From an uncultured Mycoplasmatota bacterium (GTDB lineage Bacteria > Bacillota_I > Bacilli_A > RF39 > UBA660): a DNA stretch of 64,000 bases. The notes beneath the pieces were generated by a model. The model was not told the origin of the DNA. It saw only the letters and a program-made list of their open reading frames with translations, and did not search any database. The first letter of the stretch is position 1, and the number at the start of each line of letters is the position of its first letter. The stretch lies in NCBI GenBank assembly GCA_900548725.1, contig URLV01000004.1, forward strand, positions 162 to 64,161, read 5' to 3'. The position numbers and the translations under genes are program-made. Below are positions 7,470 through 51,814 of the stretch, piece by piece.

Positions 7470-7552
7470 ACCATTATCCCCCTTAAAAAAAATAATTAAT
7501 TTATGAGTGTTATAATACTATAAGCATTTCATAATATTTGTCGAATTATGTT

Positions 7553-7584
7553 GTACACAAAAAAAACTGACATAAAATCAGTTT
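7553..7584 (-). terminator. Rho-independent terminator after rny
   Basis: Minus strand AAACTGA-TTTTATG-TCAGTTT followed by a T-run. Confidence 0.65.
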
Positions 7585-7589
7585 ATTAA

Positions 7590-14374: not shown

Positions 14375-14485
14375 AATATATATCTTCCTTTCTATCATTT
14401 AAGAGTATTACCATACCTTATAAATAAATTCTAATATAGTTTTTTATAAAAATCAACTACATAATTAAATAAATTGTAAAAAAAT

Positions 14486-30225: not shown

Positions 30226-32550
30226 TCATATCGCAACTTTATTAACAGTTGGAGTAAGTTCAAATCTCGCATAGTATAAATGCTGATTACCAGTACGAAG
30301 ATTATTATACTTTATAAAATATATGCCATAATTTATATTATTACTTTTCGTTATAAACAGCTTTCCATTTAGTAATTGACTGTCTAAAGAAAAACTATAT
30401 CTACCGCAATTACCACACCCAGTCTTTTTCTCCATATAACCTATATTACCAACTAAAAAAGAAATTTTATCAGACAAATTATCACTTATATCAAATTTAT
30501 ATGAATCAAAATTATATTCATCGAATGTTTGTGAATTATTTCCACAACTTGAAGAATAATCAGAAGAAGTTTTATAATTACAATTCTTATCATTTATTGT
30601 ACATTTATAAAAATAATATTTAGTCTTAGTTCCATTTTTTTTGGAAATTGTTCTTTCAAGAATAACTTTATTATAACTAAAAACATTATTAGTATGTTCA
30701 AAACAAGTGTCATACCAATATTCATTATAATCCCCAATTTTCTTATCAATTTCACTCGTAGATACAGAAGAATCACTATTAATACTCACTTTATATAAGA
30801 ATCTGTTTTTAGTATAAGAACCAATAACAGCTTTAGAAAAAACAAAATAATTATTAGTTACGATATAAGGTTGAGACTCACTTCGATATGAGTTACTTTC
30901 CCCATCAAAATAATCAGAAACAGATGATAGATTAAAAGAATAATTAGTTGCATATCTTTTTAAAAAATTATTATTATAAGTAAAATCAACATATAATGTA
31001 AACATATTATATTTATTGTCCTCTTCCATATGTTTATATAAATCTAATCCATTATTTCCCGCATAAAGTATTTTCTTTAAAACATCAACTAAATCAAATT
31101 CAAAAAATAATGTATTATTTTCTTCTTTTTTTATTATAGCATTAAAATAATTATTTAATCTAGCTTCATAACTATAATAATTATAATCTTTTAAAGATAA
31201 AGATATATTCAACCAATCTTTATAGTTGCTATAGTTCTTTACAGTTACACTAAATTTAGAGAAGCTGTTCTCAATAGGTTTTATTATTATGTCATCTTCA
31301 TCAATAGATTTAATTTCTTCATTTATAAAAATTTTTCTATTTTTAGCATTATCATATGCAATAACATATTTTTCTTTACACTCATATATACCATTATTGC
31401 CAGTGTTAGTTATATCACCTTCATCTCTTGAATTTTTAGAACAATATACTTTTGAAAGACCTGATTTATCATCTGTTATTTTATATTGAATTTCACTATT
31501 ATCAGAATTAATCTTTTCAATAACAGGCAAAACATTATCAACTTTTATTGTTTTATTGTTTGAACTATTACTAGAAATCAATGTATTTTCTAAAGATTTT
31601 GCTTCAAATACATAATCATATTTATATTCACCACTTTCATTAAAAAAGTAAGAAGTAGTTTTTTCATCTTTATTAATATTATTAGTTGGGTTTGAATCTT
31701 CAAATATACTTAAGTTTGATTCTTTTATTCCATTTAAATATGCCTCATCATCAGCAACACCAACAATATCAATCCTCACATTTTTATACCATTTATCAAA
31801 ATCAGTATCAGTAATTACTTTTTCAGTGTTATCACTTATACCGTATACACGTAGTATTGGAGCAGTATATATAAATAAATTCTTAGTTAAAGATTCATCC
31901 TGATATTTTATTTGTTGAGATAACATTTTATTTTTTAGAGTTTCAATATTAACATTATCAACATTGTCTTTAATGCTACCATTATCTATATATAAGTATC
32001 CACAAGTAAAAACACCTTTATCACACTCAATATTTAAACGATTAAAATCATTATCATAAAAATATACTTTATCAAAAAAATTTCTTTCCAAATAATCAAT
32101 ATTTTTTTGATTATCCTTTAAGTCATTATCATAAATATATTTAGTTGTAGAATAATTCAACGGAGAACCATTTAAAGGATAATATAATGTTACCACATCA
32201 TTATCTTCATTTCTGTTAGACAATAAAATTTTCTTATAATCACTTTCACCATCACTTAATTCTGATATGTCTATTCCATCAACTAACAATTCATTCTCTA
32301 GCAATCCAAGATTACGTAATTGTTCTACCGACAAAACTAAATACCCTCCATTTTTAATCAAATCTTGTTTTAAGTTTTCATTAGAACTATAATAAACATC
32401 AGCACTATTTACAACTTTTTTCACATTTTTATCATATTCACTATCTTTTTTATTTACTAAAGCTACTATAGATATTGTTGTAATAACACTTATTATAACC
32501 AAACATACAATTATTTCTATTAAAGTAAATCCCTTTTTACTTTTTTTCAT
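30226..32550 (-). CDS. 774-aa protein with prepilin-type N-terminal cleavage/methylation signal
   Basis: MKKSKKG/FTLIEIIVCLVIISVI class III signal, then about 740 aa of N/S/Y-rich extracellular sequence with a Cys cluster near the C-terminus. ATGA overlap with the upstream GDPD gene. Confidence 0.8.
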   Translation of the reverse strand: MKKSKKGFTLIEIIVCLVIISVITTISIVALVNKKDSEYDKNVKKVVNSADVYYSSNENLKQDLIKNGGYLVLSVEQLRNLGLLENELLVDGIDISELSDGESDYKKILLSNRNEDNDVVTLYYPLNGSPLNYSTTKYIYDNDLKDNQKNIDYLERNFFDKVYFYDNDFNRLNIECDKGVFTCGYLYIDNGSIKDNVDNVNIETLKNKMLSQQIKYQDESLTKNLFIYTAPILRVYGISDNTEKVITDTDFDKWYKNVRIDIVGVADDEAYLNGIKESNLSIFEDSNPTNNINKDEKTTSYFFNESGEYKYDYVFEAKSLENTLISSNSSNNKTIKVDNVLPVIEKINSDNSEIQYKITDDKSGLSKVYCSKNSRDEGDITNTGNNGIYECKEKYVIAYDNAKNRKIFINEEIKSIDEDDIIIKPIENSFSKFSVTVKNYSNYKDWLNISLSLKDYNYYSYEARLNNYFNAIIKKEENNTLFFEFDLVDVLKKILYAGNNGLDLYKHMEEDNKYNMFTLYVDFTYNNNFLKRYATNYSFNLSSVSDYFDGESNSYRSESQPYIVTNNYFVFSKAVIGSYTKNRFLYKVSINSDSSVSTSEIDKKIGDYNEYWYDTCFEHTNNVFSYNKVILERTISKKNGTKTKYYFYKCTINDKNCNYKTSSDYSSSCGNNSQTFDEYNFDSYKFDISDNLSDKISFLVGNIGYMEKKTGCGNCGRYSFSLDSQLLNGKLFITKSNNINYGIYFIKYNNLRTGNQHLYYARFELTPTVNKVAI

Positions 32551-34521: not shown

Positions 34522-34602
34522 TAAGTAGAACATTTATTTATTAAATGTCCTACCTTGTTGGTTATGACATTTGTACTTTATAGTACTATGTCATTTTTAT
34601 TT
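34522..34602 (+). ncRNA. convergent antisense RNA, putative type I antitoxin (module D)
   Basis: TTGACA (34487-34492), 17 nt, TAAAAT (34510-34515). ATGACA..GTACT..AGTAC..TGTCAT hairpin (34564-34594) followed by TTTTTATTT. Overlaps the 3' end of the minus-strand peptide ORF. Confidence 0.45.
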
Positions 34603-34709
34603 ACCAAACCCCCGATATAGTTAATCTTAAAAAAAGAATATATAATTTTAATAAAAAATATAATAATTATTCTATCCAATATTTCTAAAATAAATGAATA
34701 AAACTTCAT
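34578..34709 (-). CDS. 43-aa hydrophobic peptide, putative type I toxin (module D)
   Basis: MKFYSFILEILDRIIIIFFIKIIYSFFKINYIGGLVNKNDIVL with an AAGGGAG SD. Shares L(N/D)RIIII with the module A peptide. 5' AGAACATTTA (34758-34767) is complementary to 3' TAAATGTTCT (34529-34538). Confidence 0.4.
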   Translation of the reverse strand: MKFYSFILEILDRIIIIFFIKIIYSFFKINYIGGLVNKNDIVL

Positions 34710-34837
34710 AATTATTACTCCCTTCATACTTAAATATAAAAGGCAAGACATAAACAATAAATGTTCTGATTATATATACAATACTAAAACATATAAGTAT
34801 TTCGTCGAATAAAATCACATATAAAAAAATATGTTAA

Positions 34838-35620
34838 TTAAAACATATTCATTATTGAAATAATTAACAGTAACATTACTCCAACACCAGTACAAACCAA
34901 CATTACCATCGTTTTGCTTTCCATCTTCTCTAGTCTATTCTTATATCTAGTTTCTCTTGCCTTTTGTTGTAAACTAGAAATAGATCTAGAAAATTGAAGT
35001 AATTGTTCTTGCTTTCTTTCTTGACTTCCAAGACCCAATCTATATAAAAGTCTCATCATTCTCATAGAATCTCTAACAGGATATTCCTTAGCAAAATCCA
35101 TATAAGGAGTAATACTTGAATCACCCGCATTTATCTTTTGCAACAATTCTTTTAAACCTTCTTGAAATATTTTAGGAGCATCTTCGATACTCTTACCTAT
35201 TGCAACAGGAACAGTATAGTGTTGAATTAATATTTCTAAACTTTTTAAATAATATGGAAGCATAGAATCTATCTCATGCAAATGAGCTTTATAATAATTC
35301 TTAAGTTTTATATAACTTAATTTAAACATTCCAAAACCAGCAACTATAGAAATAATAACTTTAGTATAATCTAAATTATTAATAAATAAAAATATACAAA
35401 GTACCATAACTATAGCACCATCTCTAATTCTTCCAGAAAATAATCTATCTGAGTCTATACCATCCCCATATCTAGCTTTAAGTAAAAACTCATAATCACT
35501 TTCTTTTAAAGTTTTAAAATATTCTTGATTATCTTTAACAAACTTATTCAAATTAACACTACCAGTAACTTGTAACACAATAAATATTAATACAATAATA
35601 ATAACAGCTTCTATAAACAT
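34838..35620 (-). CDS. T2SS-F family platform protein, TadC-like
   Basis: 260 aa. N-terminal TM, a cytoplasmic helical domain and C-terminal TM, in the single-domain GspF/TadC layout. Last large gene of the tad-like operon. Confidence 0.6.
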   Translation of the reverse strand: MFIEAVIIIVLIFIVLQVTGSVNLNKFVKDNQEYFKTLKESDYEFLLKARYGDGIDSDRLFSGRIRDGAIVMVLCIFLFINNLDYTKVIISIVAGFGMFKLSYIKLKNYYKAHLHEIDSMLPYYLKSLEILIQHYTVPVAIGKSIEDAPKIFQEGLKELLQKINAGDSSITPYMDFAKEYPVRDSMRMMRLLYRLGLGSQERKQEQLLQFSRSISSLQQKARETRYKNRLEKMESKTMVMLVCTGVGVMLLLIISIMNMF

Positions 35621-35622
35621 AT

Positions 35623-36519
35623 CTATTCAACCCCCGTATCTTCATTATAAAACTTAATACCCTTAAGTAAGAAGAAAGAGTTAAGTATTATTATCAAATG
35701 TAATATAATCTGAACATACCATTCTTTTAACATATTTAAATAATTTGAACCACCTAATAAAAATTGTATTAACATAACAAGTAAATATAAAGCTAAACCA
35801 AATGTTAAAAATTTAGTATAAAATGTTTTTCTATCCATTTTATCTCTATAAACACCTTCTACTAAAGCATCTATATCAAGCATCATATTTTCTAAACTTT
35901 CACCACTATCTTTAGCACCTTCATTAGTAATTTGTAAAAATAGTTGATGCATATTCTTTACCATATAATATGGATATTTTTTATTAAACCAATTAATACT
36001 TTCATCTATTGTTCCATTTTTATATGACATATCTATCATATGTTTAACATCGCTTAATACAGGTTCTTCAAGTATTCCACTTTCAACAACCCCTTCAAGT
36101 GACTTAACAAAAGATTGTGTTGTATTAAATTCCATTATTACATTTGTACAATAAGTTTGAATACATTCAAATAAATATTCACTATAAACTCTTTTATATT
36201 TCAAAACAGTTAAATATGGAATAAAAGCAGTAGCAACTAAGCCATAAATAATAGCCCAAGTCAAACTTCTAAAATATAAGAATGCTACACCACCACCACC
36301 TACTAGAAATAATACAAATTCTATAGTATATTGTTTAGCATCAAAAGTTTGTCCTAATTCTTTAGCTTTTTCTTTAACATCATCATAATTATATGGAATT
36401 ATTTTTGACATTAATTTTTTATATCCACTTTTAAAACTTCCACTTACACTATCATTTTTACCAAATCTAGTAATAAGTACAAATATAGTTATGACTATAA
36501 TTAAAATACTTTCTAACAT
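35623..36519 (-). CDS. T2SS-F family platform protein, TadB-like
   Basis: 298 aa with the same single T2SS-F-domain topology. 2-nt gap to the TadC-like gene. Confidence 0.6.
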   Translation of the reverse strand: MLESILIIVITIFVLITRFGKNDSVSGSFKSGYKKLMSKIIPYNYDDVKEKAKELGQTFDAKQYTIEFVLFLVGGGGVAFLYFRSLTWAIIYGLVATAFIPYLTVLKYKRVYSEYLFECIQTYCTNVIMEFNTTQSFVKSLEGVVESGILEEPVLSDVKHMIDMSYKNGTIDESINWFNKKYPYYMVKNMHQLFLQITNEGAKDSGESLENMMLDIDALVEGVYRDKMDRKTFYTKFLTFGLALYLLVMLIQFLLGGSNYLNMLKEWYVQIILHLIIILNSFFLLKGIKFYNEDTGVE

Positions 36520-36536
36520 TAATTATAACCACCCTT

Positions 36537-37619
36537 CTAATCTTCTTCTCCCTTATTAACACTACCTAATCTAAATGTATCATCAGGCAAAACAACACCT
36601 TGTATACTTAAATAATCAATTAAATATTTAGTAGGATTTTGTATTTGATATTTACCATTCATAAATTTTTTATAAATTATATTTTTCTTAGCATGATTTT
36701 TTTCATTAACATAAAATTCACAAACTTCAAATATTTCTCTTTGAAATCTATTTAATTCTTTACTAAAATATCCCTTAACATATACACCAATTTGTACATA
36801 TCTATGAATACTTGATAAGAATTGTTCTATATCTTGACTACTTTCCATCAAACTATACATACGCATAGGAATACTACTTGCTTTATCACTATGTATAGTA
36901 GATAAAATATTATGTCCAGATGAAATACTATTACGTACAGCCATAACAGCCTCTGCACTACGTACTTCTGATAATAATATCCATTTAGGATTCTGTCTCA
37001 TACAACTAACAAGTACATCACTATAACTAGCAATATTATTTGTTTTAACAGCAACAATATCTCTATGAGGAAATATTTTGTCTAAATGTAATTCCAATGT
37101 ATCTTCTATAGTAATAATTTTTTCATTTTCTTTAGTATAGCTTGCTAAATATTTAACCAATTCAGTTTTACCACTACCAGTTTCTCCACTTACAATAATG
37201 TTACAATGACCTTCAACGCATTTAATTAAAAAATCATGTATCTCAACTGTAGTATATCTTTCATTAATTAATTTATCTTTATTAAGTCTTATTTTAGCAG
37301 GAGTTTTACGTATAACACACGCAATACCATTAGTACTAATAGATTCATGTATAAAGTTCATACGTAACTCAGCACTTTCAGCGTCCAAGAATGGAGAAGC
37401 CATATTAAATGTCTTCCCCATTACATTAGAACATTGAAATGCCAACTTCTCCATCATTGCATTATTAATCTCGGGTCTATCAACTTGATATATTCCCTTA
37501 GTCAATGATTTAAGCCATACTTGTCCACCATTACTATATGAAATATCTGTAATATCATCAGTCTCTAAAAATTCCTTTAAAGGTCCAAAATCTAATTGAG
37601 AAAACACAGCATCATTCAT
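36537..37619 (-). CDS. TadA/CpaF/VirB11-class secretion ATPase
   Basis: GETGSGKT Walker A, ITIEDTLEL Asp box, WILLSEVRS Walker B, ILSTIHS His box, IRK motif. Confidence 0.8.
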   Translation of the reverse strand: MNDAVFSQLDFGPLKEFLETDDITDISYSNGGQVWLKSLTKGIYQVDRPEINNAMMEKLAFQCSNVMGKTFNMASPFLDAESAELRMNFIHESISTNGIACVIRKTPAKIRLNKDKLINERYTTVEIHDFLIKCVEGHCNIIVSGETGSGKTELVKYLASYTKENEKIITIEDTLELHLDKIFPHRDIVAVKTNNIASYSDVLVSCMRQNPKWILLSEVRSAEAVMAVRNSISSGHNILSTIHSDKASSIPMRMYSLMESSQDIEQFLSSIHRYVQIGVYVKGYFSKELNRFQREIFEVCEFYVNEKNHAKKNIIYKKFMNGKYQIQNPTKYLIDYLSIQGVVLPDDTFRLGSVNKGEED

Positions 37620-37629
37620 ATATTATCAC

Positions 37630-38478
37630 CTAGTTTCCACTATTATTGTTATTATTTAAATCATTCATAGTTGTAGAAACATCAATTTCATCACTTAATT
37701 CAGATACTTTTGCAAGTATAAAATCAACTAATTCTTGTTTAGAAACTTGAGTACCATTTTCAGTATCTCCTTCATTTCTATATTGAGCATTTCTAGGTAC
37801 TGGAACTATTTCTATTCCACCAACAAAACTTGCTTCACTTAATAACATAAATAAGTTATCTTTAACAGCAAACAATAATTCACCACTACTTCTCTGTGTT
37901 TGACTATCGGCAAATACATCATTACCACTCGAATCTCTTACAGATAATACTTTAATACTTTCAATAAACTTACCAAAAATAACTTTACCATTATCATCAG
38001 TAGCTTTTAAATATAAATCTATAAAATTACCAGGCATAATTGAATTACCATAAGTACTATGACTATTAACACTTAAGCTAAATATAGTAGCTCCTTCATC
38101 AATATCATCAAAAGCAGTATCAGGTATTTTATCTTTTTCTACTAATTGAGATTTATAAAATAATCCACCTTCAGGTATAACAGTATCATAATTTACATAC
38201 CATTCTTTTGACATAATATATTGTTTACTAGTAACTAAATCTTGTGTTTGTTCAACAAATGCACCACTAACTTTTATAGTACCAACATTTTCAGCCTCAA
38301 CTTTACTCTTTGGTTCCATACGTTTTAGTGCATAAGGTACATTAACTGGTTGAACAGCTTGTTTTACTCTATAATTATAACCTACCAAAAGTACAGCAAC
38401 GCCAGCCAAAACACATAATACAGTTACAGTATTTTTGTTTCCTAAAAATCTTTTTAATTTTAACATTATATTTCCCAT
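37630..38478 (-). CDS. CpaB/RcpC-like pilus assembly protein
   Basis: N-terminal TM, SAF-like domain, SIMPGNFIDLYL and IKVLSV / LLFAV..L..A blocks typical of CpaB. GGAGG SD. Confidence 0.65.
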   Translation of the reverse strand: MGNIMLKLKRFLGNKNTVTVLCVLAGVAVLLVGYNYRVKQAVQPVNVPYALKRMEPKSKVEAENVGTIKVSGAFVEQTQDLVTSKQYIMSKEWYVNYDTVIPEGGLFYKSQLVEKDKIPDTAFDDIDEGATIFSLSVNSHSTYGNSIMPGNFIDLYLKATDDNGKVIFGKFIESIKVLSVRDSSGNDVFADSQTQRSSGELLFAVKDNLFMLLSEASFVGGIEIVPVPRNAQYRNEGDTENGTQVSKQELVDFILAKVSELSDEIDVSTTMNDLNNNNNSGN

Positions 38479-38531
38479 CTTATTCCTCCTATATTATATA
38501 CCATAATAATACTATATTTTAATAAACTTTT

Positions 38532-39572
38532 CTAGTCATAATCGTAATAAAAATCAATTTTATACTTAATACCTATCATACATGTATTATAGTAAGGAGT
38601 TTTTTCACAATTATCCCCACTACAACTATCTAAATATTCACTAGGAGTATTTAAATAATTAGACACGCTAGCTTTCTTTCTAAAAGGTTTAACTCCATGA
38701 TTTTCATTAAAACGTTCAACACCATCGCAACTATAATCTAATCCATATGCTAAATATTTTTTACCATTATCACCATCTACAACTGATATTCTTACATTTT
38801 CTACTTTAGCAAAAAAATCTCCATAATTACTAACACCATTTATTTTATTAATAGAACCAGTATTAACAGTATAATCATAAGTATCATTAAAATTAGTAAT
38901 ATAGTTTTCATGATCTTGTTGAGTACTCATAGTGTTTAAAAATTTAACATCCAATATTTTAATTTTATTTTTATCAAAACTTAAACCTTGCGCCTCTATC
39001 TTTTTTCTTATTTTTTTTACAACTTTAGAGTTATCTGAAAAGTTTAAAGGTACCTTATTAGTTACGGCACAATAACCAATATTGTCTTCTTTTCTATATT
39101 GATCCTCAACACTACAATCACCATAAGGTACTGAATAAAATATAAAATCGTTATCATCAGCAAAAACATTATTATTAGATTCAAGTATCGCATCATATGA
39201 ATTTACTACATCTATATTAGTAGCATCACCCGCTATATTAAAATCTCCAGTATTAGTAGTAACTCTAATACTTACACTAGGTGGATTTTCATAAACTGAA
39301 TAAAAATCTAACTTATATGTATTAGTCTTAGATACAGTTTCTGCAAATCTTCTAATAAATACCTCAACAAATTTTTCTGTGTTTATTCTTACTTCACCAT
39401 ATTTTTTATAGTAACTCCAATCTATAGAATCATGCATTGATCCATTAGTTACTTCTTTTAATAAATAATAATCTTGTTGATTAGTTGTTACCATATTAGA
39501 CATTAATATCATAACAGTACTAACCATTATTCCAAGTAAAATTAAATAATATCCCCACATCGACTCTTTCAT
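38532..39572 (-). CDS. N-terminally anchored extracellular protein, unknown family (346 aa)
   Basis: TM at residues about 7-28. No prepilin G/FxxxE site. 8 Cys in the C-terminal half. ATGA overlap with the upstream gene. Confidence 0.7.
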   Translation of the reverse strand: MKESMWGYYLILLGIMVSTVMILMSNMVTTNQQDYYLLKEVTNGSMHDSIDWSYYKKYGEVRINTEKFVEVFIRRFAETVSKTNTYKLDFYSVYENPPSVSIRVTTNTGDFNIAGDATNIDVVNSYDAILESNNNVFADDNDFIFYSVPYGDCSVEDQYRKEDNIGYCAVTNKVPLNFSDNSKVVKKIRKKIEAQGLSFDKNKIKILDVKFLNTMSTQQDHENYITNFNDTYDYTVNTGSINKINGVSNYGDFFAKVENVRISVVDGDNGKKYLAYGLDYSCDGVERFNENHGVKPFRKKASVSNYLNTPSEYLDSCSGDNCEKTPYYNTCMIGIKYKIDFYYDYD

Positions 39573-42500
39573 GGCGTTACTCCTTCATTAACTTTTCTAT
39601 ATAAACAATCATAATAATTAGATTCATTTTCTTTAAAACTACTACACTCATTTCCAGTATAACTAGTTAATTTATTTAATATGATCCACTGACCATTAAT
39701 ATAATATTTTCTGTTTTGTCTACCAGTTAATTTAGCGTTTACTCCATTTACATCCAAACCAGTTCCTAAACTTCCATTAGATAATCCATTCAAGAACATA
39801 CTTTCACATTCCATACCTAAACCATTACAATTAGTTGACCAATCAACGTTATCATATTTATTTAATTTATTATATTCTCTAATCTGATCCAAAGTATTAG
39901 CATTTAAGGTAAACGAATATTCCAAATTATTTGGATTATAAGTATTTTGATTTTTTGATTTATCTTCTATAATTTTCATTAAAGCTTGACCCTTAGTACT
40001 TGACCAATTAGCACCTAACAATCCTTTATCAAGTCTGTTATTAGGATCAACATCATTAGTTGCTATAGGTCGTACAAAAAATTTAGTCTTATATTTCTTA
40101 TTATTTTCAGTTTTATCTTTGGTTTCTTTATCCAATACTACAGCATCATTAGTAATTTTATATGTACATGTATATGTAGCATTATCTCCGTTTTTTAAAA
40201 CATTTTTTACATTACCCGATAAATTTGAATTATTTGTATCCATAACGAATTTTATGTTTCTTGTTCCACTACTAGCAATCTTAACCGGAAATACATTTCC
40301 TAATTTAATACTTTTATTATTGTAAGTCTCTACAATACTTCCTGTATAAAAATTAGTATAATAATCAAAATTAGTATGAAATTCATAATTAACTTTTTTG
40401 GTTCTTGTAGTAATATGATTATCACCAAAAGTATAAGCATTAAATTTCTCATTAGTACTACCATAACTTATATTATATTCTTCAGTAACATCTTTTCTAT
40501 CCAAATTATCATTGCTATAATAAGGATCATCAGTAATTAGTTTAACTTCATTATCTATGGTAGTATCTAAATCATATTTTATAGAAACATTAGGTTTTAC
40601 ACTATAAAATTTTTCTGTAGAAACTGAACTAGTAGATAATGTATTAAAGCAAGTTTTATTCATATTCTGTAGATTCTGTCTTTTACCTTTCTCTACAACA
40701 TAAGTACCATCTGTATCAGCACTTATTTCACTTAATTTTTTTGTAGTATCTAATTGTTGATATATTTGATTAAACAAACTACTTTTAGCAGTACTAATAT
40801 TATCATTTTCACAATATGTAGCACTTACACTTGTACCATTGTCATACGTTTTTGAAGAAATATCATAAACTTGAGGAGTAAAACTTACATTATATCTTTT
40901 ATAATATTCATAGCATTTTTTTGGATGTTCCCTTGTACCACAACTCCAACTTCTTTTTACACCACAACTACTATCTTCACTTCCATAATCACTAGGAGAA
41001 TTTATAACATTTATTCCTTCAGCATTTTGATAGTCAACATAGGCCTTTTTTTCATTATCAATTGCAATATTATAAGAAGTTTTCCACAAATCATAATTAA
41101 ATGTTTGAGTACATTTATAAGTAGACTTTACTTGTGGTGTATATATCAATTCAAAATAAGTACCAGATTTAACAGTTTCAAATATAGATGGATACGTATA
41201 TTCAAATGTTTCAGTACATTTCATAGGACAATATTTATTAATTGTATATGTTTTATTAGATTTAGTTATAGATTGATTATTTTCCAATGAATTAGTACTA
41301 TAATCATCAGTATTTTTAATTGTACTAGTTAATGTTGATTGATAATCATTTGCAACATCACAAGTTTTATATATATTAGTCATATTTTCAACGATATTTG
41401 AAAAATCATCACTATAACAAGCATAATAAGTACCTTCATAATTTAAATTGTTAATATTTAAACTAGTAGTTCCTCTCATAATATCTTTTGTACTACAATT
41501 ATTATTTTTACTCCAATAGCTAAACTTCCTACCAGTTCCTATTTCATATAAACCATTACCATCTAAAGTAGTAGTAACATCTGGTAAAGAAATAGTCTTA
41601 TTTTCAACTTGATTATTATCAGAATCATATTTAAAACTATACCTACAAACACCATTACTAATAGCATGCCCAGGACAATCCATTCCATATCCACTAGTTC
41701 CATCAAATGTAATATATTTAGTTTCAATAATAGGCAAACTACCACACATAGATGTATAGATATCTTTAAAAGTATTATCGCCATTTTCTATTAAGCTTTT
41801 AGCATAAGTACAAGCTTCATTTTTCAAACCATCAGAAACTTTACTTAAATAATCATCTAATCCAGTTGCATATCCATCAACATAGAATAAAGTATATCCG
41901 CAAGTATTTTTAGAACCGTAAACGCTTGAATTTGGTTTTAATATTCCCGTATATAAATTACCACCTTTTACTAATTTTAAACTCTCACAATTAACAGGTT
42001 CACTATAATAATTCTTTATTTTGCTTTTATCAATATCACCAGTTGAAGAAATACAATTATTTTTATACACATTTTCATATAAATTATAATTTTCTTGAAA
42101 TTTATTTACAATATCTTCTTTCATTTCAGAACAACTTTTTCCTTCATAAGAAACACTTAGTCTTTCACTATTAATTCCAGAATCATAACAATATGTATTA
42201 TAATAATTAATCTTTTCTTCATTAAAATAATAATTCTTTTTAACAAAACTTTTTTGAACATCACAAGCCGTTTTTTTTAAATCATTATCTGCTTTACTCA
42301 AATAAAAATTTAATCCTACAGCACAATGATTATATATATATAGTGGATAACCTTCTTCAACTTCATTATAATTAAAAACTTTATTATCATATTCAGCATA
42401 CCACTTATCACATTCATATTCATCATTTCTTACACCTTGACTATAAGAAACTTCGTATTTTTTTCCACTACTACTAACATTACTAACTTTAATATCTTTA

Positions 42501-42580
42501 TTATTAATAAGCACAATACTTCCTAAAATAAGAACTAAAAAAACAATAAATACTATAATCTTATTTTTTAACTTAATCAA
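39569..42580 (-). CDS. 1003-aa N-terminally anchored, Cys-rich extracellular protein, unknown family
   Basis: Single N-terminal TM, many Cys, an internal duplicated module (C86-C131 and C227-C279), no C-terminal TM. Confidence 0.75.
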   Translation of the reverse strand: MIKLKNKIIVFIVFLVLILGSIVLINNKDIKVSNVSSSGKKYEVSYSQGVRNDEYECDKWYAEYDNKVFNYNEVEEGYPLYIYNHCAVGLNFYLSKADNDLKKTACDVQKSFVKKNYYFNEEKINYYNTYCYDSGINSERLSVSYEGKSCSEMKEDIVNKFQENYNLYENVYKNNCISSTGDIDKSKIKNYYSEPVNCESLKLVKGGNLYTGILKPNSSVYGSKNTCGYTLFYVDGYATGLDDYLSKVSDGLKNEACTYAKSLIENGDNTFKDIYTSMCGSLPIIETKYITFDGTSGYGMDCPGHAISNGVCRYSFKYDSDNNQVENKTISLPDVTTTLDGNGLYEIGTGRKFSYWSKNNNCSTKDIMRGTTSLNINNLNYEGTYYACYSDDFSNIVENMTNIYKTCDVANDYQSTLTSTIKNTDDYSTNSLENNQSITKSNKTYTINKYCPMKCTETFEYTYPSIFETVKSGTYFELIYTPQVKSTYKCTQTFNYDLWKTSYNIAIDNEKKAYVDYQNAEGINVINSPSDYGSEDSSCGVKRSWSCGTREHPKKCYEYYKRYNVSFTPQVYDISSKTYDNGTSVSATYCENDNISTAKSSLFNQIYQQLDTTKKLSEISADTDGTYVVEKGKRQNLQNMNKTCFNTLSTSSVSTEKFYSVKPNVSIKYDLDTTIDNEVKLITDDPYYSNDNLDRKDVTEEYNISYGSTNEKFNAYTFGDNHITTRTKKVNYEFHTNFDYYTNFYTGSIVETYNNKSIKLGNVFPVKIASSGTRNIKFVMDTNNSNLSGNVKNVLKNGDNATYTCTYKITNDAVVLDKETKDKTENNKKYKTKFFVRPIATNDVDPNNRLDKGLLGANWSSTKGQALMKIIEDKSKNQNTYNPNNLEYSFTLNANTLDQIREYNKLNKYDNVDWSTNCNGLGMECESMFLNGLSNGSLGTGLDVNGVNAKLTGRQNRKYYINGQWIILNKLTSYTGNECSSFKENESNYYDCLYRKVNEGVTP

Positions 42581-43254
42581 ACCAAATCACCTCTTTTTTT
42601 ATTGATTTTAATAATAGCTACAAAACCAATAGAAACACAAATAACAATTAGTACAATGTACCAATATTCTTTTAATATTTTAATTAAATCATCTATACCA
42701 AACTTATTTATTACTTTAGTATCTTCTTTAACATTTAAACTTTCTTTATATTTATTAATATTTTCTTTAATTTTATCATCATTTAGACTAAATTTATTAT
42801 TAAGCAAAGGTTTACAATATTGATAATCTTTTATTCCATTACATATATCCATATAGTAATATCTATTTATTATTTTCTTAGTAATAGTTTTAGTAGTTAA
42901 TTTATTACCATAACAAGAACTATTACTAACATAAATAGTAACTCTATAAGTTATAATATCATCAATATTATTATCAATAAAACTGTAATGATTATCTACC
43001 ATGTCATAACTATGTACTTCTTTATTTTCTTCAGTTTTACTATTATATATATTAACGTATAATTCATCATCTAAATTATATAAATTAAATACAAAATATT
43101 TATTATTTAAATCAGGTTCAAAATATACTTCTATATCTTTAGACTTTTCTAATAAATTTTTTCTTTCTTGATAATTACATTCAGCATTAACTACATTACT
43201 AAAAACAAACATAAATACAAATATAACTATGATATATTTAATATTTTTCTGCAT
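42577..43254 (-). CDS. secreted/type I membrane protein, unknown family (225 aa)
   Basis: Start moved to MQKNIKY.. after a GGTGG SD. Signal peptide ..VVNA/E, 4 Cys ectodomain, C-terminal TM and KKRG tail. Confidence 0.7.
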   Translation of the reverse strand: MQKNIKYIIVIFVFMFVFSNVVNAECNYQERKNLLEKSKDIEVYFEPDLNNKYFVFNLYNLDDELYVNIYNSKTEENKEVHSYDMVDNHYSFIDNNIDDIITYRVTIYVSNSSCYGNKLTTKTITKKIINRYYYMDICNGIKDYQYCKPLLNNKFSLNDDKIKENINKYKESLNVKEDTKVINKFGIDDLIKILKEYWYIVLIVICVSIGFVAIIKINKKRGDLV

Positions 43255-43278
43255 TAATACCACCTTTATCTTAAATAA

Positions 43279-43287
43279 ATTATAACA
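43279..43287 (-). promoter_or_regulatory. extended -10 promoter element of the tad-like operon
   Basis: Minus strand TGTTATAAT, about 25 nt upstream of the 43254 start and immediately after the terminator. No clear -35. Confidence 0.35.
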
Positions 43288-43291
43288 CATG

Positions 43292-43340
43292 AAAAAAACA
43301 AATTAAAGAAAAATCAATTCAATTCTTCAATTTGTTTTTT
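43292..43340 (-). terminator. Rho-independent terminator after yukD
   Basis: Minus strand AAACAAATTGAAG..CTTTAATTTGTTT (13-bp stem, one G-U) followed by a T-run. Confidence 0.65.
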
Positions 43341-43344
43341 ATAA

Positions 43345-43611
43345 TTAGCACAATACAAGTGTACTACCATTTACAATATTTGTATTATATACAAAATCAT
43401 CTAAATTATAACATATTGCTTCATTGGCATTATATAAGTTCAAAGTAGAATTATCATTAAAAGATCCCTGAGATAAATCTTTTAAAGCTTTTGATAACAA
43501 ATACACTATTTCGCCAATTGTTTTATTAATCGGTATCAAAATATCATATGTTTCATATAACATAGGTACCACCAATTGTACATTATATTTACTCTTCATT
43601 TTCATCACCAT
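43345..43611 (-). CDS. YukD/EsaB-like ubiquitin-fold T7SS protein
   Basis: 88 aa, beta-grasp-like pattern (YDILIPINKTIGEIV..., C-terminal GSTLVL). Overlaps the essC stop. Confidence 0.6.
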   Translation of the reverse strand: MVMKMKSKYNVQLVVPMLYETYDILIPINKTIGEIVYLLSKALKDLSQGSFNDNSTLNLYNANEAICYNLDDFVYNTNIVNGSTLVLC

Positions 43612-46600
43612 TAAAATAATCTAATAATTTAATTTTAGTAATTATACCATTTTCAAACACAAATCCAAATTTATCAGTAATAGTATCTCTATACTCTCTA
43701 AGCATTCTTCCACTTTTTAAAATCATTTGTTCACTAACACCATTTCCTATCCAAATTCCCCTATTATTATTAATATTGGTTTTATAGAATTCTTCAAATT
43801 CTAACTTTTTCAATACGTTTGATGCTTCTATAAAAATAGTTGATACATTATCCTTTTCATTTAATAATTTTAATATATTATTAAATTCTTTTTTCAACAG
43901 TATATCAAAACTACTATAAATATCATATATTCCTAAGAAACATATAAAATAATTAATTTCATTTTTATTATCCAATTTCATAGCAAAATTTTTCAATTGG
44001 TTTAAATATTCAACATAATTATTATTTATAACATTTGGTATACCCATTATATTATTATATTTTTTATACGAATTAAACAAATAAACTTTATTATTATTAA
44101 AAGATAATATGTTTTTTAATAAACTATTATAAAAATTAATCAAAATATCGATATCTAATCCAGAAACTAAAACTCCACGTTTAGACATAAAACCATATTT
44201 AATTATATTTAAATTATCTACATTTACTCCGATAGGAATATTCAAAGGATCATTTAAATATTTTTTTATAATATCATAAGTAACTATTGTCGGTAAAACA
44301 GGTATTGCTCTAACTTTGTTATAAATTGAAATTAACTCATTAGATCTATTTTCAATCATATCTATATTTGACATTTCATTAGAAATATATGCTGTCTGAA
44401 ATTCGTAAATATTTTCTAGTTTAAGTAAACCTCTGCCTTTAATTTTACTTGGAATATTCAATACTCTACTTCCATAAATATTTGAATAATCGTATTTATC
44501 TTTTAATTCTAAAGTTAATGTTTGTTTAAAATTTTGTAAAATTTTCGTTCTAACACTATTTATTGAATTTGTAGTTATAATTATTGTTATACCATATTTA
44601 TTACATTCTCTAGACAACTTAAGAAATTCATCATTTAATGAATCATAATTTTCAAATAATATTTCTATAACATTAATAAATAAAATCACACAAGGTATTT
44701 TTTTATCAACATTTTTTTTATTATATGTTATTAAATCTCCATTAAAATCAATCAAAATTTTTTTTCTTTGTTCTATCAAAGAATTTAAATACTTAAAAGT
44801 ATTAAATATTTTCTCTTTATTATCTATAAATATTACATCCCCAACATGTGGTGTTTTATTGAAGTTAATTAAGGATTCACTTCCAAAATCCATAATATAA
44901 ATATTAACTTCTGATGTATCATACTTATCAATAAGTGAATAAATCATAACTTGTAATAGCATTTCTTTACCAGAATCAATTATTCCATATATTACTAAAT
45001 TACCCTTTCCTAACAAATCAACAGTAGCTAAACCTTTCTGTTGCATTTCGGGAGCATCATACTCACCAAATACTACAGTAATATTAGAATTTTTTTCAAA
45101 ATTATATTTTTTTAACAAATCATCATAATAAATTTTATCAGGAATTAATTCTCTCCATAATCCTTTAATATTAATGTTTAATTCTTTAGACAAGTTTATA
45201 ATTTTTTTTACAATATTACTAACTACTTTTCCTTGATTATTAATATTTACATTTTCCTTTGAACTAATAGTATATATATTTTTTCCATTAAAATCTAAAA
45301 ATTCTAATGTTTCACTTTTAATATCTACATCATCTTTTTCGTAATATTCCGAACCTGCATAAGCACTTTGACCTTTAACAAATAATTCATTAAAACCTAC
45401 TTGCAAATAAAATCTTCCAGGTTCTTTTAACAACGCAGCATCAGATACACGTATCATTTCACTTGAATCAGACTTATCTTGCACTTTCAAACATATTTTG
45501 AATCTTGAGTTCGACCAAATTTGATTATCAACAACACCACTTGGTTTTTGAGTTGATAATATCAAATGTATACCTAAACTACGTCCAATTCTAGCAATAG
45601 AAATTAATTCTTCTATAAATTCTGGATTTTGTTCTTTTAACTCAGCAAATTCATCACTGATTATAAATAAATGACTTAATCTTTCAATATCATTATGCAT
45701 AAAATATAAATTTTCGTATTTATATATATCCATATTACCTTCATTATATTTTATACTAGCAGTAGCAAATAATTTTTGTCTTCTCTTAATTTCACTTTTT
45801 AAAGATATTAAACTCCTATTTATTTCATTTTCATTTATATTAGTAATAACTCCAACAACGTGTGGTAAAATCATCCCTATATTAGAATTATAAAAAGTAT
45901 TAGCAAGCCCTCCACCTTTATAATCTATCAATATAAATTGAACTTCTTCAGGACTGTAATTTACTGCTAAAGACAAAATGTAAGTAATTAATAATTCTGA
46001 TTTCCCACTTCCTGTCATTCCAGCTATTAAGCCATGAGGACCGTGAGCATTTTCATGAACATTAAGTAGAACTAAATCTCCATTATCATCTATCCCAATA
46101 GGCACTGACAAAGAATTAATAATTGAACTGTTATTCCACCTAGACTTTATATTTAATGAATCAATATTTCCAACATTATACATCTCTAAAAAATCGTATT
46201 TTGTTGGTAACACAAATTTTTTCTCAAAAAAATCTAAACTAATATTTGACAAATTTTTATAACACAAACTAAAATCATCATCAATAATATCTGGAATAAA
46301 ATTATTTTCTACATAATCCATATTTTCATTAATTATTAATTTACCACCATCTTTATCTAAAAATATAAAATTTTTACAATCACTCGGTAAAGAATCCATT
46401 TTATTACTATTAAAAATAATTGTAAAACCTAAATTTAAATCATTTTTTATAATATTATTTAATACAGAAATATTTTTTATTTTTGTTTCATCATCCACAA
46501 ATATTACATAATTTTCAAAAAATATATTATCCTTTTCATTATTTTCAATTAAATTTAATCTCTCATTATATTTTTCATCAATATAATTAATTATTAAATT

Positions 46601-48154
46601 ATATGATAAAGAATCATAACCAAAAAATCTTAAATTCATCTCATCATTCCAAATGTAAGGTAAATCTATATAAGTTTTCCAATAATTAATATTGTTTTTA
46701 TCAGTCAATACAATAATTTTTAAATCATCATAACTACAACTAGCAAACAACCTAATTAAAAAACTTGATATATATTTATATAAATAATTTGAATTACCTA
46801 TAAAAGAAACAACATTATTTTGTTGAAAATCAAAAACAATAGGAACTTCATTTATATAATTTGTTTCTTCTTGAAGTTTTGTCAATTGTATTCGTAATTT
46901 ATCTCTATCTATAGTAAAATGCTCTTCCGGTATTTCAATTTTTATATTAGGTTTTATTCTTCCAATACCTAATGAGATAGTCAAAAAATTATTACTATCT
47001 TTTTTTCGTTCCCATAATTTACTATTTATAGTTTCAATTATTTCTTTAGACTCTAAAGTATTATAATAAGTATTACAAATTTCGTTCTTTTGAAAATTCA
47101 TTTCATTTATTATTAATCTCTTTTTCTCATAAATATAATCTTTATATTCTGATATTCTTTTTATTTCTCTTTTACTTTCTCTTTTTTTGCGATAAACGTT
47201 TGATAAAATCGGATATAATATCATAGCAATTAACATACAACTTGCTACAATTAAACTTCCCAAACTGTCTTCTAAAGTTTTTTCTTTCATAGTAATATTA
47301 TTAATAATATTTATTATTGTTATCATAGAAGTCATTGACATCAACATCATAGGAAGCATATTAATAATTAATGGCACATCTTCTTTTAATTCTTGATTTC
47401 CTGGTCCATCAATTTTAAAAACTTTTGTTTCTATTTTTCTCTGAATTTTAGGAACTCTTTTAAATTTTAGCAATGATTTGTTTTCATTAATATTTCCCTG
47501 TATTAAATATTTTGTATAATCATTAATAACTTTATCTATCAAAACTAAACTATTTTTTTTATAAATAAATTTATTATTATCGTGAGATATAACAATGATA
47601 TTTTTTAGTATATTAATAAAAACTCCATCAAAAAAGATATTGCTACCATACTTGACTTTTTCGTTATTATATTTATTTTCACATACGTATATAGCTTCTT
47701 TTACATCTTTCAAATTAATTTTAAAAAAATTATCTCCCAAAATAAATTCAATTTTAGAGTACTCAAATTTTTCACTTTCAATAATAATATCTGCATCAAC
47801 AAAATATTTTCCAGCTAAAACAATTTTAGAATTAGATGAATTAAACGTAAATTTTTTATAATCATCATCAAAATCATTTAAATAATATAAAGTATAAACT
47901 TGATTGGTTTCAATATTCAAAATATAATAAATACAATTTATTTCTAAAATTTGACTTTCTATAACATTATTCTTATCTTCAAAATCTTTAATTATTTTAT
48001 ATTTTTTATTTGAATAAATAACATAATTTTGTTCATTTAATTTTACATTAACAATTTCATCTTCATGATAATCATGTAACCAAAAATTTGATGATTTATT
48101 ATCAAAAATTTGTTTCCAAGTTAAATGATTTCCATCTGATAGTATCATCCTCAC
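43589..48154 (-). CDS. essC: T7SSb ATPase EssC/YukB (FtsK/SpoIIIE family)
   Basis: 1521 aa. FHA-like N-terminus, two TM helices, then three P-loop modules: D1 GMTGSGKSE with FIISDEFAELK, D2 GIIDSGKE, D3 degenerate. Confidence 0.9.
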   Translation of the reverse strand: MRMILSDGNHLTWKQIFDNKSSNFWLHDYHEDEIVNVKLNEQNYVIYSNKKYKIIKDFEDKNNVIESQILEINCIYYILNIETNQVYTLYYLNDFDDDYKKFTFNSSNSKIVLAGKYFVDADIIIESEKFEYSKIEFILGDNFFKINLKDVKEAIYVCENKYNNEKVKYGSNIFFDGVFINILKNIIVISHDNNKFIYKKNSLVLIDKVINDYTKYLIQGNINENKSLLKFKRVPKIQRKIETKVFKIDGPGNQELKEDVPLIINMLPMMLMSMTSMITIINIINNITMKEKTLEDSLGSLIVASCMLIAMILYPILSNVYRKKRESKREIKRISEYKDYIYEKKRLIINEMNFQKNEICNTYYNTLESKEIIETINSKLWERKKDSNNFLTISLGIGRIKPNIKIEIPEEHFTIDRDKLRIQLTKLQEETNYINEVPIVFDFQQNNVVSFIGNSNYLYKYISSFLIRLFASCSYDDLKIIVLTDKNNINYWKTYIDLPYIWNDEMNLRFFGYDSLSYNLIINYIDEKYNERLNLIENNEKDNIFFENYVIFVDDETKIKNISVLNNIIKNDLNLGFTIIFNSNKMDSLPSDCKNFIFLDKDGGKLIINENMDYVENNFIPDIIDDDFSLCYKNLSNISLDFFEKKFVLPTKYDFLEMYNVGNIDSLNIKSRWNNSSIINSLSVPIGIDDNGDLVLLNVHENAHGPHGLIAGMTGSGKSELLITYILSLAVNYSPEEVQFILIDYKGGGLANTFYNSNIGMILPHVVGVITNINENEINRSLISLKSEIKRRQKLFATASIKYNEGNMDIYKYENLYFMHNDIERLSHLFIISDEFAELKEQNPEFIEELISIARIGRSLGIHLILSTQKPSGVVDNQIWSNSRFKICLKVQDKSDSSEMIRVSDAALLKEPGRFYLQVGFNELFVKGQSAYAGSEYYEKDDVDIKSETLEFLDFNGKNIYTISSKENVNINNQGKVVSNIVKKIINLSKELNINIKGLWRELIPDKIYYDDLLKKYNFEKNSNITVVFGEYDAPEMQQKGLATVDLLGKGNLVIYGIIDSGKEMLLQVMIYSLIDKYDTSEVNIYIMDFGSESLINFNKTPHVGDVIFIDNKEKIFNTFKYLNSLIEQRKKILIDFNGDLITYNKKNVDKKIPCVILFINVIEILFENYDSLNDEFLKLSRECNKYGITIIITTNSINSVRTKILQNFKQTLTLELKDKYDYSNIYGSRVLNIPSKIKGRGLLKLENIYEFQTAYISNEMSNIDMIENRSNELISIYNKVRAIPVLPTIVTYDIIKKYLNDPLNIPIGVNVDNLNIIKYGFMSKRGVLVSGLDIDILINFYNSLLKNILSFNNNKVYLFNSYKKYNNIMGIPNVINNNYVEYLNQLKNFAMKLDNKNEINYFICFLGIYDIYSSFDILLKKEFNNILKLLNEKDNVSTIFIEASNVLKKLEFEEFYKTNINNNRGIWIGNGVSEQMILKSGRMLREYRDTITDKFGFVFENGIITKIKLLDYFNGDENEE

Positions 48155-48251
48155 AATATCACAACCCTACTATAATCATTTTAACAATTTTTTACTAATT
48201 TGTCACCAAATTTTATTAACAAAAAAAGATTACCTCCAAGTAATCTTTAAC

Positions 48252-48551
48252 TTATACATTTGATATTGATTGAGCTGCTGCAGCATCAGTTTCTTCATTT
48301 CTAGCAGTAACAGTATAAATATGGTTTTTCATATTAACAACAGCTTGATAAAAACTATCATAACTACTTCTAATTTCTTGATATCTACCATTGGAAACAT
48401 CTGCACCACTACTCTGCCATGATTCCCCATATAAAGATTTCATAGATGAATCGATATTGTCAAAAATTTGCATTATATTATCAGCATTATTTTTTATAGC
48501 ATCGGCATAACCTCTTGCAGCTTCATAATCTTTTTCTTCAAATTCATTCAT
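48252..48551 (-). CDS. WXG100-like small helical protein (degenerate WQSSG)
   Basis: 99 aa, two-helix layout, ..YGESWQSSGAD... Confidence 0.6.
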   Translation of the reverse strand: MNEFEEKDYEAARGYADAIKNNADNIMQIFDNIDSSMKSLYGESWQSSGADVSNGRYQEIRSSYDSFYQAVVNMKNHIYTVTARNEETDAAAAQSISNV

Positions 48552-48568
48552 TTTTTCTTAACCTCCTT

Positions 48569-48865
48569 CTAAAATAAATTTTTTGCTGCACTCGCATTTT
48601 GTTGTTCAGTATCATCAAAAGTATGTGCACCTTCAGATATTTTTTCTCCTAAAACAGTTAACAATTCTCTAAAAGAATTCAAATTAACAACTTGACTATC
48701 CGTAGCTTCTTTAAATGAATTTGCAGAAACTCCTTTCCAAATTGACATTAAAGATTCTACATTAGTTGATAAATTAGTTATTTCATTAGCAAAAGATTCT
48801 GCATTATCAACAGTATTCAATCCTTGACTATTCATACTTTCAGGATCTACATGTAATCCAGACAT
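48569..48865 (-). CDS. WXG100 family protein (EsxA-like)
   Basis: 98 aa, central IWKGVSANSF WXG motif. Confidence 0.8.
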   Translation of the reverse strand: MSGLHVDPESMNSQGLNTVDNAESFANEITNLSTNVESLMSIWKGVSANSFKEATDSQVVNLNSFRELLTVLGEKISEGAHTFDDTEQQNASAAKNLF

Positions 48866-48904
48866 ACAACTCCTCCTTTCAAAATATTATATAAAATTTC
48901 AAAA

Positions 48905-49198
48905 TCAAATCAATTTTGAAACTTTATTATCAGTTTGTTTATAATTATTTTTTACATTTTGTAAATGCGGTGATAATAAAATAAATTTACCTCTAGAATC
49001 ATTTATACTTTTTTTAATAATACTCCAATTAGAAATAATTAAATCTGAAAGATTACCTACTAATACTTCTTCAGAACTAATATTTTTCATATTTTTATCT
49101 AATTGATTTACAAAGTCATTTATTTTAACTCCCGTATTGACAACAACAGAAGCAGCATCCTCAAATATTTCATAATTATTAATATTAAAATTATTCAT
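48905..49198 (-). CDS. small helical T7SS-associated protein (no WXG)
   Basis: 97 aa, same size class and operon position. No W-x-G. Confidence 0.5.
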   Translation of the reverse strand: MNNFNINNYEIFEDAASVVVNTGVKINDFVNQLDKNMKNISSEEVLVGNLSDLIISNWSIIKKSINDSRGKFILLSPHLQNVKNNYKQTDNKVSKLI

Positions 49199-49209
49199 AA
49201 AACACCACC

Positions 49210-49497
49210 TTACAAATTCACATTCGAAAAATCATTTTCCAACGCTTCTATCTTGTTTATACTTTCACTAATAAATTGAATAAACCTCGTAATTTCATTA
49301 ATTTTAGCTTGCAATTGCAACACAAAGTCGTCACTCGTATCTCTAAATGAATCACTTGCAACCCCATCCCAACCATTGACAGAATTTAATATTTTGTCTT
49401 TATATAACTTAATTTGTTTATTTAAATTTTCAACCTCATTATTCATTTCAGTAATACATTGTCTTGCAACATCAAAATCACAAACATATTTTGCCAT
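49210..49497 (-). CDS. WXG100 family protein
   Basis: NGWDGVASDSF WXG motif. Start at MAKYV.. after a GAGGTGA SD. Confidence 0.75.
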   Translation of the reverse strand: MAKYVCDFDVARQCITEMNNEVENLNKQIKLYKDKILNSVNGWDGVASDSFRDTSDDFVLQLQAKINEITRFIQFISESINKIEALENDFSNVNL

Positions 49498-49638
49498 ATT
49501 TATCACCTCAATCTAAAATAGTTTTTTTCATCATAACTATAATAATATTATATTACATTTCTGTTATTTTACTAAAATCTAAAAAATAACTTTAATTAAA
49601 ATGTCGATATTTTAAATTTAAAAACATATTCACAAAAT

Positions 49639-50679
49639 TTACTTTTCACCAAAATACTTTCCATAATTTGTAGCTTTAGTTATGCATTGTCTCCATTCAG
49701 GATGACATTTCGCAGTACCTGGATTTGAGTGGTTAGAATCGTACCAACTTTTTTTATCAACAATAAATTCAACAATAGTTTGACCATTATCATGACCCCA
49801 CTTATTACATCCATAATCATTTTGATTTTTTACATCTCCAATAATACATTTAATAACTGACCCATCTGCCTGTTCAAAATCAACAGAATCTCCAACTTCT
49901 CCAAAAGTTGTAGTTGTTGCAACTACATATCTATCTCCTATTTTAGCAAAACCTTCGGAATCATATGATTCCCCTGCTTTCTCTCTCAGTTTATATTGTT
50001 CAGATGTTTTTGAAGTAATCATTTGCCATCCCATATATGTATGAACTTTTCCTAAATTATTTGGCACATTTATCACTTTTTGTTCTTTTAAATTATTATC
50101 ATTTTGAATTTGAGACACAGTTTGATTTTCAAGAACGACTTGTTCCTCAGAAACATTTTGCTTTTTAGAATCATTAGAATTGCCAGTTGGTATAATTAAT
50201 TTTTGACCAACATGAATTAAACTAACATTTTTTATATTATTTACAGATGCTAAAGCAGATACAGTAGTTCCATATTTATATGCTATCTCACTTAAAGTAT
50301 CCCCACTAACAACAGTATAATTAAAATTTTTAGAATCAGAAGAACTTAAGGAATTATCATTATTCAAAACTTCCACATTATTATTTACAATAGAAACTTC
50401 ATTAATGCTAGAACTAATTTCAAATTGAAAACTATTTTGCAAGTTGGTGTGTGACTCTATAATATTATTAAGTAAATTAAATGAGTTATTCATTTTGTTT
50501 ATGGTTTCATCTACATTACTCAATATAGCTTTTTTTGCACCTTCAAAATTAAACTCCAATGCATCTCCAACATCATAAGATTGTATAGAATTTCTAACAT
50601 TTTCTAAATCATTACTAGAAACCTTAATCATATCAGCAACAGAACTAACAGCTTCTACATCCAAAATAAATTTTGTCAT
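49639..50679 (-). CDS. T7SS-substrate-like N-terminal helical domain, LysM, and an uncharacterised C-terminal domain
   Basis: About 100-aa helical N-terminus. LysM ([37 protein letters not shown]). C-terminal 140 aa ([26 protein letters not shown]) unplaced. Confidence 0.65.
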
Positions 50680-50714
50680 ATCATCATTACTCCTTTTTTA
50701 TTTTAAAATAAACA

Positions 50715-51641: not shown

Positions 51642-51814
51642 ATTATCACCTAGCCTTCTAAAAAAATAATAACAAACAAAAAAATATATTTCAACATATA
51701 CAAAAAAAATATACAAAACGTTTACATGCTTAATTTCAAATGTTTTTTTCATTAATTTACATATTATGGCATACATGATATACTTTATCTATAATATTGG
51801 AAGGAAAATAAAAA

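Follow-up and report, generated by a model that had tools for sequence, protein, structure and literature searches.

What does a Tad-like assembly machine build when no pilin gene stands beside it? This question is raised by a seven-gene operon (g1 to g7) in a 64,000-nucleotide stretch of DNA from an uncultured Mycoplasmatota bacterium (contig URLV01000004.1 of assembly GCA_900548725.1), hereafter called the window. A preliminary description had read the operon as a Tad-derived envelope machine whose fibre subunit or cargo is not a recognisable pilin. The DNA of the window is chromosomal and comes from a spore-forming member of the Bacillota with approximately 24% GC; among its genes are recA, rny, pnp, rpsO, trmD, SpoIID, one for a germination protease and 12 for tRNAs, and its nearest relatives are metagenome-assembled genomes of uncultured gut "Bacilli". 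No phage match was found, and a tblastn search of g6 against phages and plasmids gave none, which leaves the idea that this copy came from a prophage or plasmid unsupported. Statements on the absence of pilin, peptidase, TadZ and type IV secretion system (T4SS) genes cover the 64-kb window. Our tentative answer is that the operon joins two modules of a Tad-related type IV filament system that is modular and widespread in gut Bacilli, and that the window most likely holds, judging from related loci, a reduced or split copy rather than a clearly pilin-less machine.

Genes g4 to g7 form the motor (coordinates of the operon features are given in Table 1). On sequence grounds g5 and g4 were shown to encode a CpaF-type ATPase and a CpaB/RcpC protein, the two points on which the description of a Tad-derived machine stands: the best relatives of g5 in the PDB were CpaF (75 bits), VirB11 (65 bits) and FlaI (60 bits), its Walker A, Walker B, Asp and His boxes are intact, and Pfam RcpC was matched by 18 of 21 g4 orthologues (SAF by 4). 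The motifs quoted earlier for these products (IMPGNFIDLYL, GETGSGKT, ITIEDTLEL, ILLSEVRS and STIHS) were all present. The two T2SS-F platform proteins of the preliminary description were recovered only indirectly, g6 and g7 being TadB/TadC-like by position and topology, by a match of g6 to a Priestia plasmid "T2SS F family" protein (phmmer, 38 bits; the Priestia protein has 24.2 bits on Pfam T2SSF), by hhalign of g7 with canonical TadB/TadC (P 3.4e-4 across the T2SSF region), and by a weak, colinear similarity between g6 and g7. Hhalign of g6 with TadB gave P 0.13; T2SSF was touched by only 1 of 25 family members (24.2 bits), and none of the 6968 clusters of g6 homologues carried a Pfam domain. 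The g7 product is homologous to hyp235 of the Enterococcus plasmid pZB18. Profile searches of g4, g6 and g7 against PDB sequences gave no match. We also rejected a SpoIIIA-like role in sporulation, since the genes and their order are different and the best 25 of the 34 NCBIfam matches of g5 included no SpoIIIAA model.

The operon is real and conserved, with its own promoter and flanking hairpins. As had been described, its seven genes are co-directional and tightly packed (34838-43254, minus strand), with gaps of 53, 10, 17 and 2 nt where they do not overlap. The g2/g3 overlap is ATGA at 39569-39572 (4 nt), as read previously; the g1/g2 overlap at 42577-42580 (4 nt), also given as ATGA, is actually TTGA, and g2 starts with TTG. 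The g1 gene starts with the ATG at 43254, preceded by the ribosome-binding site (RBS) AAGGTGG, to give a 225-amino acid (aa) product, and the gene calls in relatives agree. The extended -10 element noted earlier, TGTTATAAT, is kept together with the RBS in five relatives (L091, L004, L006, L092 and L001), and the upstream hairpin with its T run was likewise recovered. A simple consensus scan reported no terminators because it demands G+C-rich stems. Between the g7 stop and the closing hairpin lies a 43-aa hydrophobic open reading frame (ORF) with a strong RBS (34578-34709, minus strand), without conservation in relatives.

Comparison of neighbourhoods, proposed earlier as a check, showed that the block is conserved as a unit: its gene order is kept in approximately 45 species-level genome loci and in the distant metagenomic loci L083 and L085, and the locus holds one chromosomal position across many genera. 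The modules are separable, since g1-g2-g3 also stand alone, without the motor, in approximately 30 loci. Identity to L004 was 93-98% for g4 to g7, and 70, 42 and 62% for g1, g2 and g3, respectively; identity to L049 was 86-96% for g4 to g7 and 22-30% for g1 to g3. The pattern is one of a motor that is conserved and of exposed parts that vary: the trio diversifies or is exchanged.

The three leading genes are always adjoining and translationally coupled. That g1 and g2 belong to no known family was confirmed, g1 having none in Pfam or NCBIfam and g2 showing no Pfam domain in 19 orthologues and no sequence match in the PDB. The g1 family was present in 78 loci and duplicated in some; L038 and L059 carry duplicated g1-g2 cassettes. 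In g2 the N-terminal part is variable and the C-terminal 200 aa or so are conserved; it has no anchor, its orthologues have ordinary Sec signal peptides, and it is related to an "Ig-like" protein of a Priestia plasmid. Thioredoxin/PedC-like genes adjoin g1 at L033:4649-5089, L083:3075-3530 and L085:4809-5249, none being adjacent in the window; their placement fits disulfide handling of Cys-rich exported proteins. The 346-aa g3 product had been assigned to no family but belongs to DUF5411 (PF17424; 167.9 bits over residues 1-133, gathering threshold 30 bits), whose members differ widely in their C-terminal parts. Its AlphaFold2 model (predicted local distance difference test score, pLDDT, 81) has a 46-residue helix (residues 3-48) followed by a 3-stranded sheet, and this predicted architecture looks like that of a type IV pilin. 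An N-terminal motif, M[KR]E[AS]xxG, is common to g3 and two protein families of sister loci described below. No TadE or Tad_N match was obtained for g1 to g3 (g3 with TadE, hhalign P 0.39, not significant), the g3 profile had no match among PDB sequences, and the class III motif G/FxxxE is absent from all three products, as had been reported. The claim that no recognisable pilin serves as the fibre subunit is only half upheld: the model of g3 is pilin-like, and g3 shares its N-terminal motif with small pilin-like and DUF4320-like proteins encoded beside the same motor in sister loci.

Beside the same motor, relatives were shown by sequence comparison to carry a third module. Many sister loci have, directly after g7, one or two genes for small proteins (MKEATGELNMTV...) that share a hydrophobic helix and the invariant N-terminus MKEATGELNMT. 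These genes are followed by one or two for "MREAIGGxWLF" proteins, which hhalign aligned to plasmid DUF4320 with P 2e-4, and then by a gene for a TadZ-like protein of approximately 330 aa, whose N-terminal half is receiver-like and whose C-terminal half is ParA-like but degenerate. The two former families are those sharing the g3 motif. Hhalign of the small pilin with Flp was not significant, nor was that of the 330-aa protein with canonical TadZ candidates, so that its TadZ likeness is one of architecture only; none of these proteins was recognised by Pfam or NCBIfam. Among the 3216 clusters of the small pilin-like family is one from [Clostridium] spiroforme. This pilin/TadZ-like module also occurs without the motor at separate loci, some directly beside a Metallophos/Rce1-like gene pair that flanks g1 in other loci. 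A T4SS_pilin-like gene comes after the pilin module in 41 sister loci, some of which continue with VirB6-, VirB3- and VirB4/TraC-like genes; one lineage of these T4SS-bearing loci has a VirD4-type coupling protein.

None of the small pilin, MREAIGG, TadZ-like and T4SS genes of the sister loci was found in the window. The reported lack of a Flp pilin, a prepilin peptidase and TadZ in the operon was upheld and extends to the window, which holds no Flp-like ORF with a G/xxxxEY site, no A24-like and no TadZ-like ORF. Because the pilin/TadZ-like module was found in sister and separate loci, this absence is most likely due to splitting or reduction of the locus, a situation close to the ordinary split tad locus that the preliminary description had set against its own reading. 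"No pilin" applies to the window locus and not to the whole family, and the Tad-related machine of the window is probably functional. Outside the operon, two canonical class III prepilins are encoded on the minus strand, one of 774 aa (KKG/FTLIE, 30226-32550) and one of 176 aa (KKG/FTLVELL, 13868-14398). A CPBP/Rce1-like intramembrane protease gene (51815-52447, plus strand) belongs to a type adjoining whichever module opens the locus: it lies by g1 in most loci, by the pilin genes in L159-type loci (L159, L160, L162 and L174, approximately 6890-7600), and near the module on pZB18 as well (L088:2641-3087). Its product is a possible substitute for a prepilin peptidase. Upstream of the Priestia plasmid system, L087:1461-1979 encodes a 172-aa polytopic protein with A24-like Asp motifs (D18, SPGD74TKM) and no Pfam or NCBIfam match.

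The operon, read as part of a modular filament system, would work as follows. Driven by the g5 ATPase via the TadB/TadC-like g6 and g7, pilin-like subunits anchored in the membrane would be extracted and stacked. With its pilin-like N-terminal helix and variable outer domain, g3 would be a minor or tip subunit that joins g1 and g2 to the filament or to a short stub; it would display this hypervariable pair of Cys-rich, Sec-exported proteins across the thick wall to mediate adhesion or cell contact. The third module seen in relatives (major pilin, DUF4320-like pseudopilins and TadZ-like protein) would lie elsewhere in the genomes of this lineage or have been lost.

Several observations weigh against this reading. 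Neither g6 nor g7 had a T2SSF match in Pfam, NCBIfam or PDB sequences; the AlphaFold2 model of g6 was poor (pLDDT 61), and nothing was found with it in Foldseek, a search that such a model makes uninformative. The g3 model gave no significant pilin match in Foldseek against the PDB, g3 lacks both the G/FxxxE and the G/xxxxEY motif, and it may have a PilO-like bitopic role instead of being a pilin. No Pfam match to an A24 peptidase was obtained among the window ORFs scanned, and an A24 motif search of the window and approximately 170 fetched relative loci yielded the Priestia plasmid candidate only. The filament itself, the processing of its subunits and the contact between g2 and g3 are predicted.

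Among known systems, the operon resembles Tad/Flp (type IVc; Caulobacter Cpa and Aggregatibacter Tad) in its CpaF-type ATPase, CpaB/RcpC protein, two single-domain platform-like proteins and the order CpaB-ATPase-B-C; sister loci, not the window, add small pilins, pseudopilin-like proteins and a TadZ-like protein. It differs in having no Flp motif, no TadE/TadG Pfam domains and no nearby A24 peptidase, in platform proteins under the T2SSF thresholds, in a short ATPase (360 aa) and in three additional leading genes. A DUF5411 operon of Roseburia, Ruminococcus and Eubacterium was predicted to be "secretion-related" by natural language processing (NLP) (Miller, Stern and Burstein 2022, PMC9523054). 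This uncharacterised operon of 8-9 genes likewise combines CpaF, a PilC/GspF-like protein, DUF5411 and a large surface protein, the likeness being one of description rather than of directly compared gene sets; it belongs to another class (Clostridia, not uncultured Bacilli), and its large protein is internalin-like. No experimental work on a DUF5411/CpaF/PilC-like operon was found in the literature. The Tad-like Kil apparatus of Myxococcus, reported to have adaptable tip complexes (PMC12075869), also uses a Tad-type motor for cell contact and has large variable tip components, but it is a diderm system with a canonical pilin and secretin and serves as an analogy only.

The best plasmid matches of g5 lead to another explanation: they are the CpaF/VirB11 genes of a Priestia plasmid, of Enterococcus pZB18 and of B. 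subtilis pLS20-type plasmids. On the Priestia plasmid the order is Ig-like protein, DUF5411, SAF, ParA-like, CpaF, T2SSF, transmembrane (TM) protein and DUF4320. Genes 34-41 of the pLS20 family, of which only the adhesin and "VirB11" have an assigned function (PMC8557374), match in sizes, topologies and local order: adhesin, N-anchored DUF5411-like protein of approximately 125 aa, VirB11/CpaF ATPase (approximately 31% identity), two polytopic proteins, DUF4320-like protein of approximately 120 aa and small TM protein. They differ in being plasmid-borne, in lacking CpaB and in being followed by VirB2, VirD4, VirB6, VirB4 and relaxase genes. It is conceivable, though unlikely, that the operon is the front module of such a Gram-positive, conjugation-like T4SS, serving mating-pair formation or DNA transfer with distant T4SS genes or surviving as a domesticated remnant. 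The plasmid matches of g5 and this shared order favour this reading, as do the T4SS_pilin-like gene after the pilin module in the 41 sister loci and the VirB4/TraC- and VirD4-like genes in some of them. Against it, VirB4, VirD4, a VirB2-like gene and a relaxase are all missing from the window, a single chromosomal position is kept across many genera, and the motor is strongly conserved without adjoining T4SS genes. The T4SS proteins of pZB18, except VirD4, had no match to the chromosomal T4SS-like genes. Slightly less probable still is that the three modules build a non-canonical type IV filament whose pilins carry an M[KR]E[AS]xxG leader that is cut by a non-A24 protease (the CPBP/Rce1-like protein being a candidate); this filament would be the missing pilus of Gram-positive conjugation systems (pLS20 genes 36-41), and the window would hold a stand-alone adhesive derivative.

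The remaining explanations are more doubtful. An improbable one is a T2SS-like piston, a DUF5411 pseudopilus that would push Sec-exported g2 through the cell wall and release it. We know of no precedent for a T2SS in monoderms, and a retained complex would account equally well for the anchored g1 and the conserved C-terminus of g2. What speaks for a piston is the Sec signal peptide of g2 without an anchor, the constant coupling of the trio, and the secretion-related tag given to the related Clostridia operon in the 2022 NLP study (PMC9523054). Even less is to be said for assembly of the two canonical N-methyl prepilins by this motor. These occur in the window without PilB/PilC/PilD or ComG genes, and the 774-aa gene is close to the block in L091 and L001 too; however, housekeeping genes separate the prepilins from the block, they travel with GDPD and TK and not with the block, and the pilins of sister loci are of a different type. 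To our knowledge, CpaF-type systems do not use G/FTLxE pilins. Functional coupling to the adjacent type VII secretion system (T7SS) genes, as suspected for T7SSg/T7SSh, seems least likely of all. EssC-like, YukD-like and WXG100 genes lie directly upstream, and T7SSg/h are reported to adjoin Tad genes invariably (Garrett et al. 2024). However, a terminator and a separate promoter split the two units, and the T7SS island is missing from nearly all other loci as well as from the colinear L091 (g3 94% identical); it is thus a strain-specific insertion between the Rce1-like gene and g1, and the link of the T7SSg/h type is therefore weakened.

Table 1. Genes and transcription signals of the operon (window positions)
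Feature	Position	Strand	Remarks
g1, 225-aa Sec-exported Cys-containing protein with C-terminal TM anchor	42577..43254	-	signal peptide ends VNA/E
g2, 1003-aa exported protein with 28 Cys	39569..42580	-	TTGA-coupled to g1
g3, 346-aa DUF5411 protein, pilin-like N-terminal module and variable C-terminal domain	38532..39572	-	ATGA-coupled to g2
g4, CpaB/RcpC-like protein	37630..38478	-	RcpC 26.8 bits; TIGR03177 alignment nearly full length
g5, CpaF/VirB11-class secretion ATPase, 360 aa	36537..37619	-	T2SSE E 1.9e-29
g6, polytopic membrane protein, TadB-like by position and transitive homology	35623..36519	-	
g7, polytopic membrane protein, TadC-like	34838..35620	-	
AT-rich terminator hairpin ending the upstream T7SS island	43293..43340	-	18-bp stem, -15.7 kcal/mol, z -4.59, then U run
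Extended -10 promoter element TGTTATAAT	43279..43287	-	read directly in sequence
Hairpin closing the transcription unit, shared with a convergent 368-aa gene	34523..34555	-	14-bp stem, -14.7 kcal/mol, z -4.54

The T7SS island occupies 43345-51776 (minus strand) and contains genes for a YukD-like protein (88 aa), an EssC-like protein (1521 aa) without an FHA match, four proteins of WXG100 size, a LysM protein and an M15 peptidase. Farther away, a 940-aa thioester-domain/SpaA adhesin gene (4647-7469, minus strand) adjoins rimM. Two relatives have the orthologous gene immediately behind g7 (L004:15054-17957 and L092:14869-17724), a placement reminiscent of pLS20, where the Tie adhesin is encoded upstream of the VirB11 module.

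The family to which this operon belongs is large and common in human and animal gut Bacilli, and the curated libraries that were searched list all of it as "hypothetical". A computational study drew attention to the family in 2022, and it is otherwise uncharacterised; it is linked here to a pilin-like module and to conjugation operons. Through it, unexplained genes of pLS20-type conjugation operons are connected with an uncharacterised Tad-like machine of the chromosome, and its hypervariable surface proteins are candidates for host or cell-cell adhesion.

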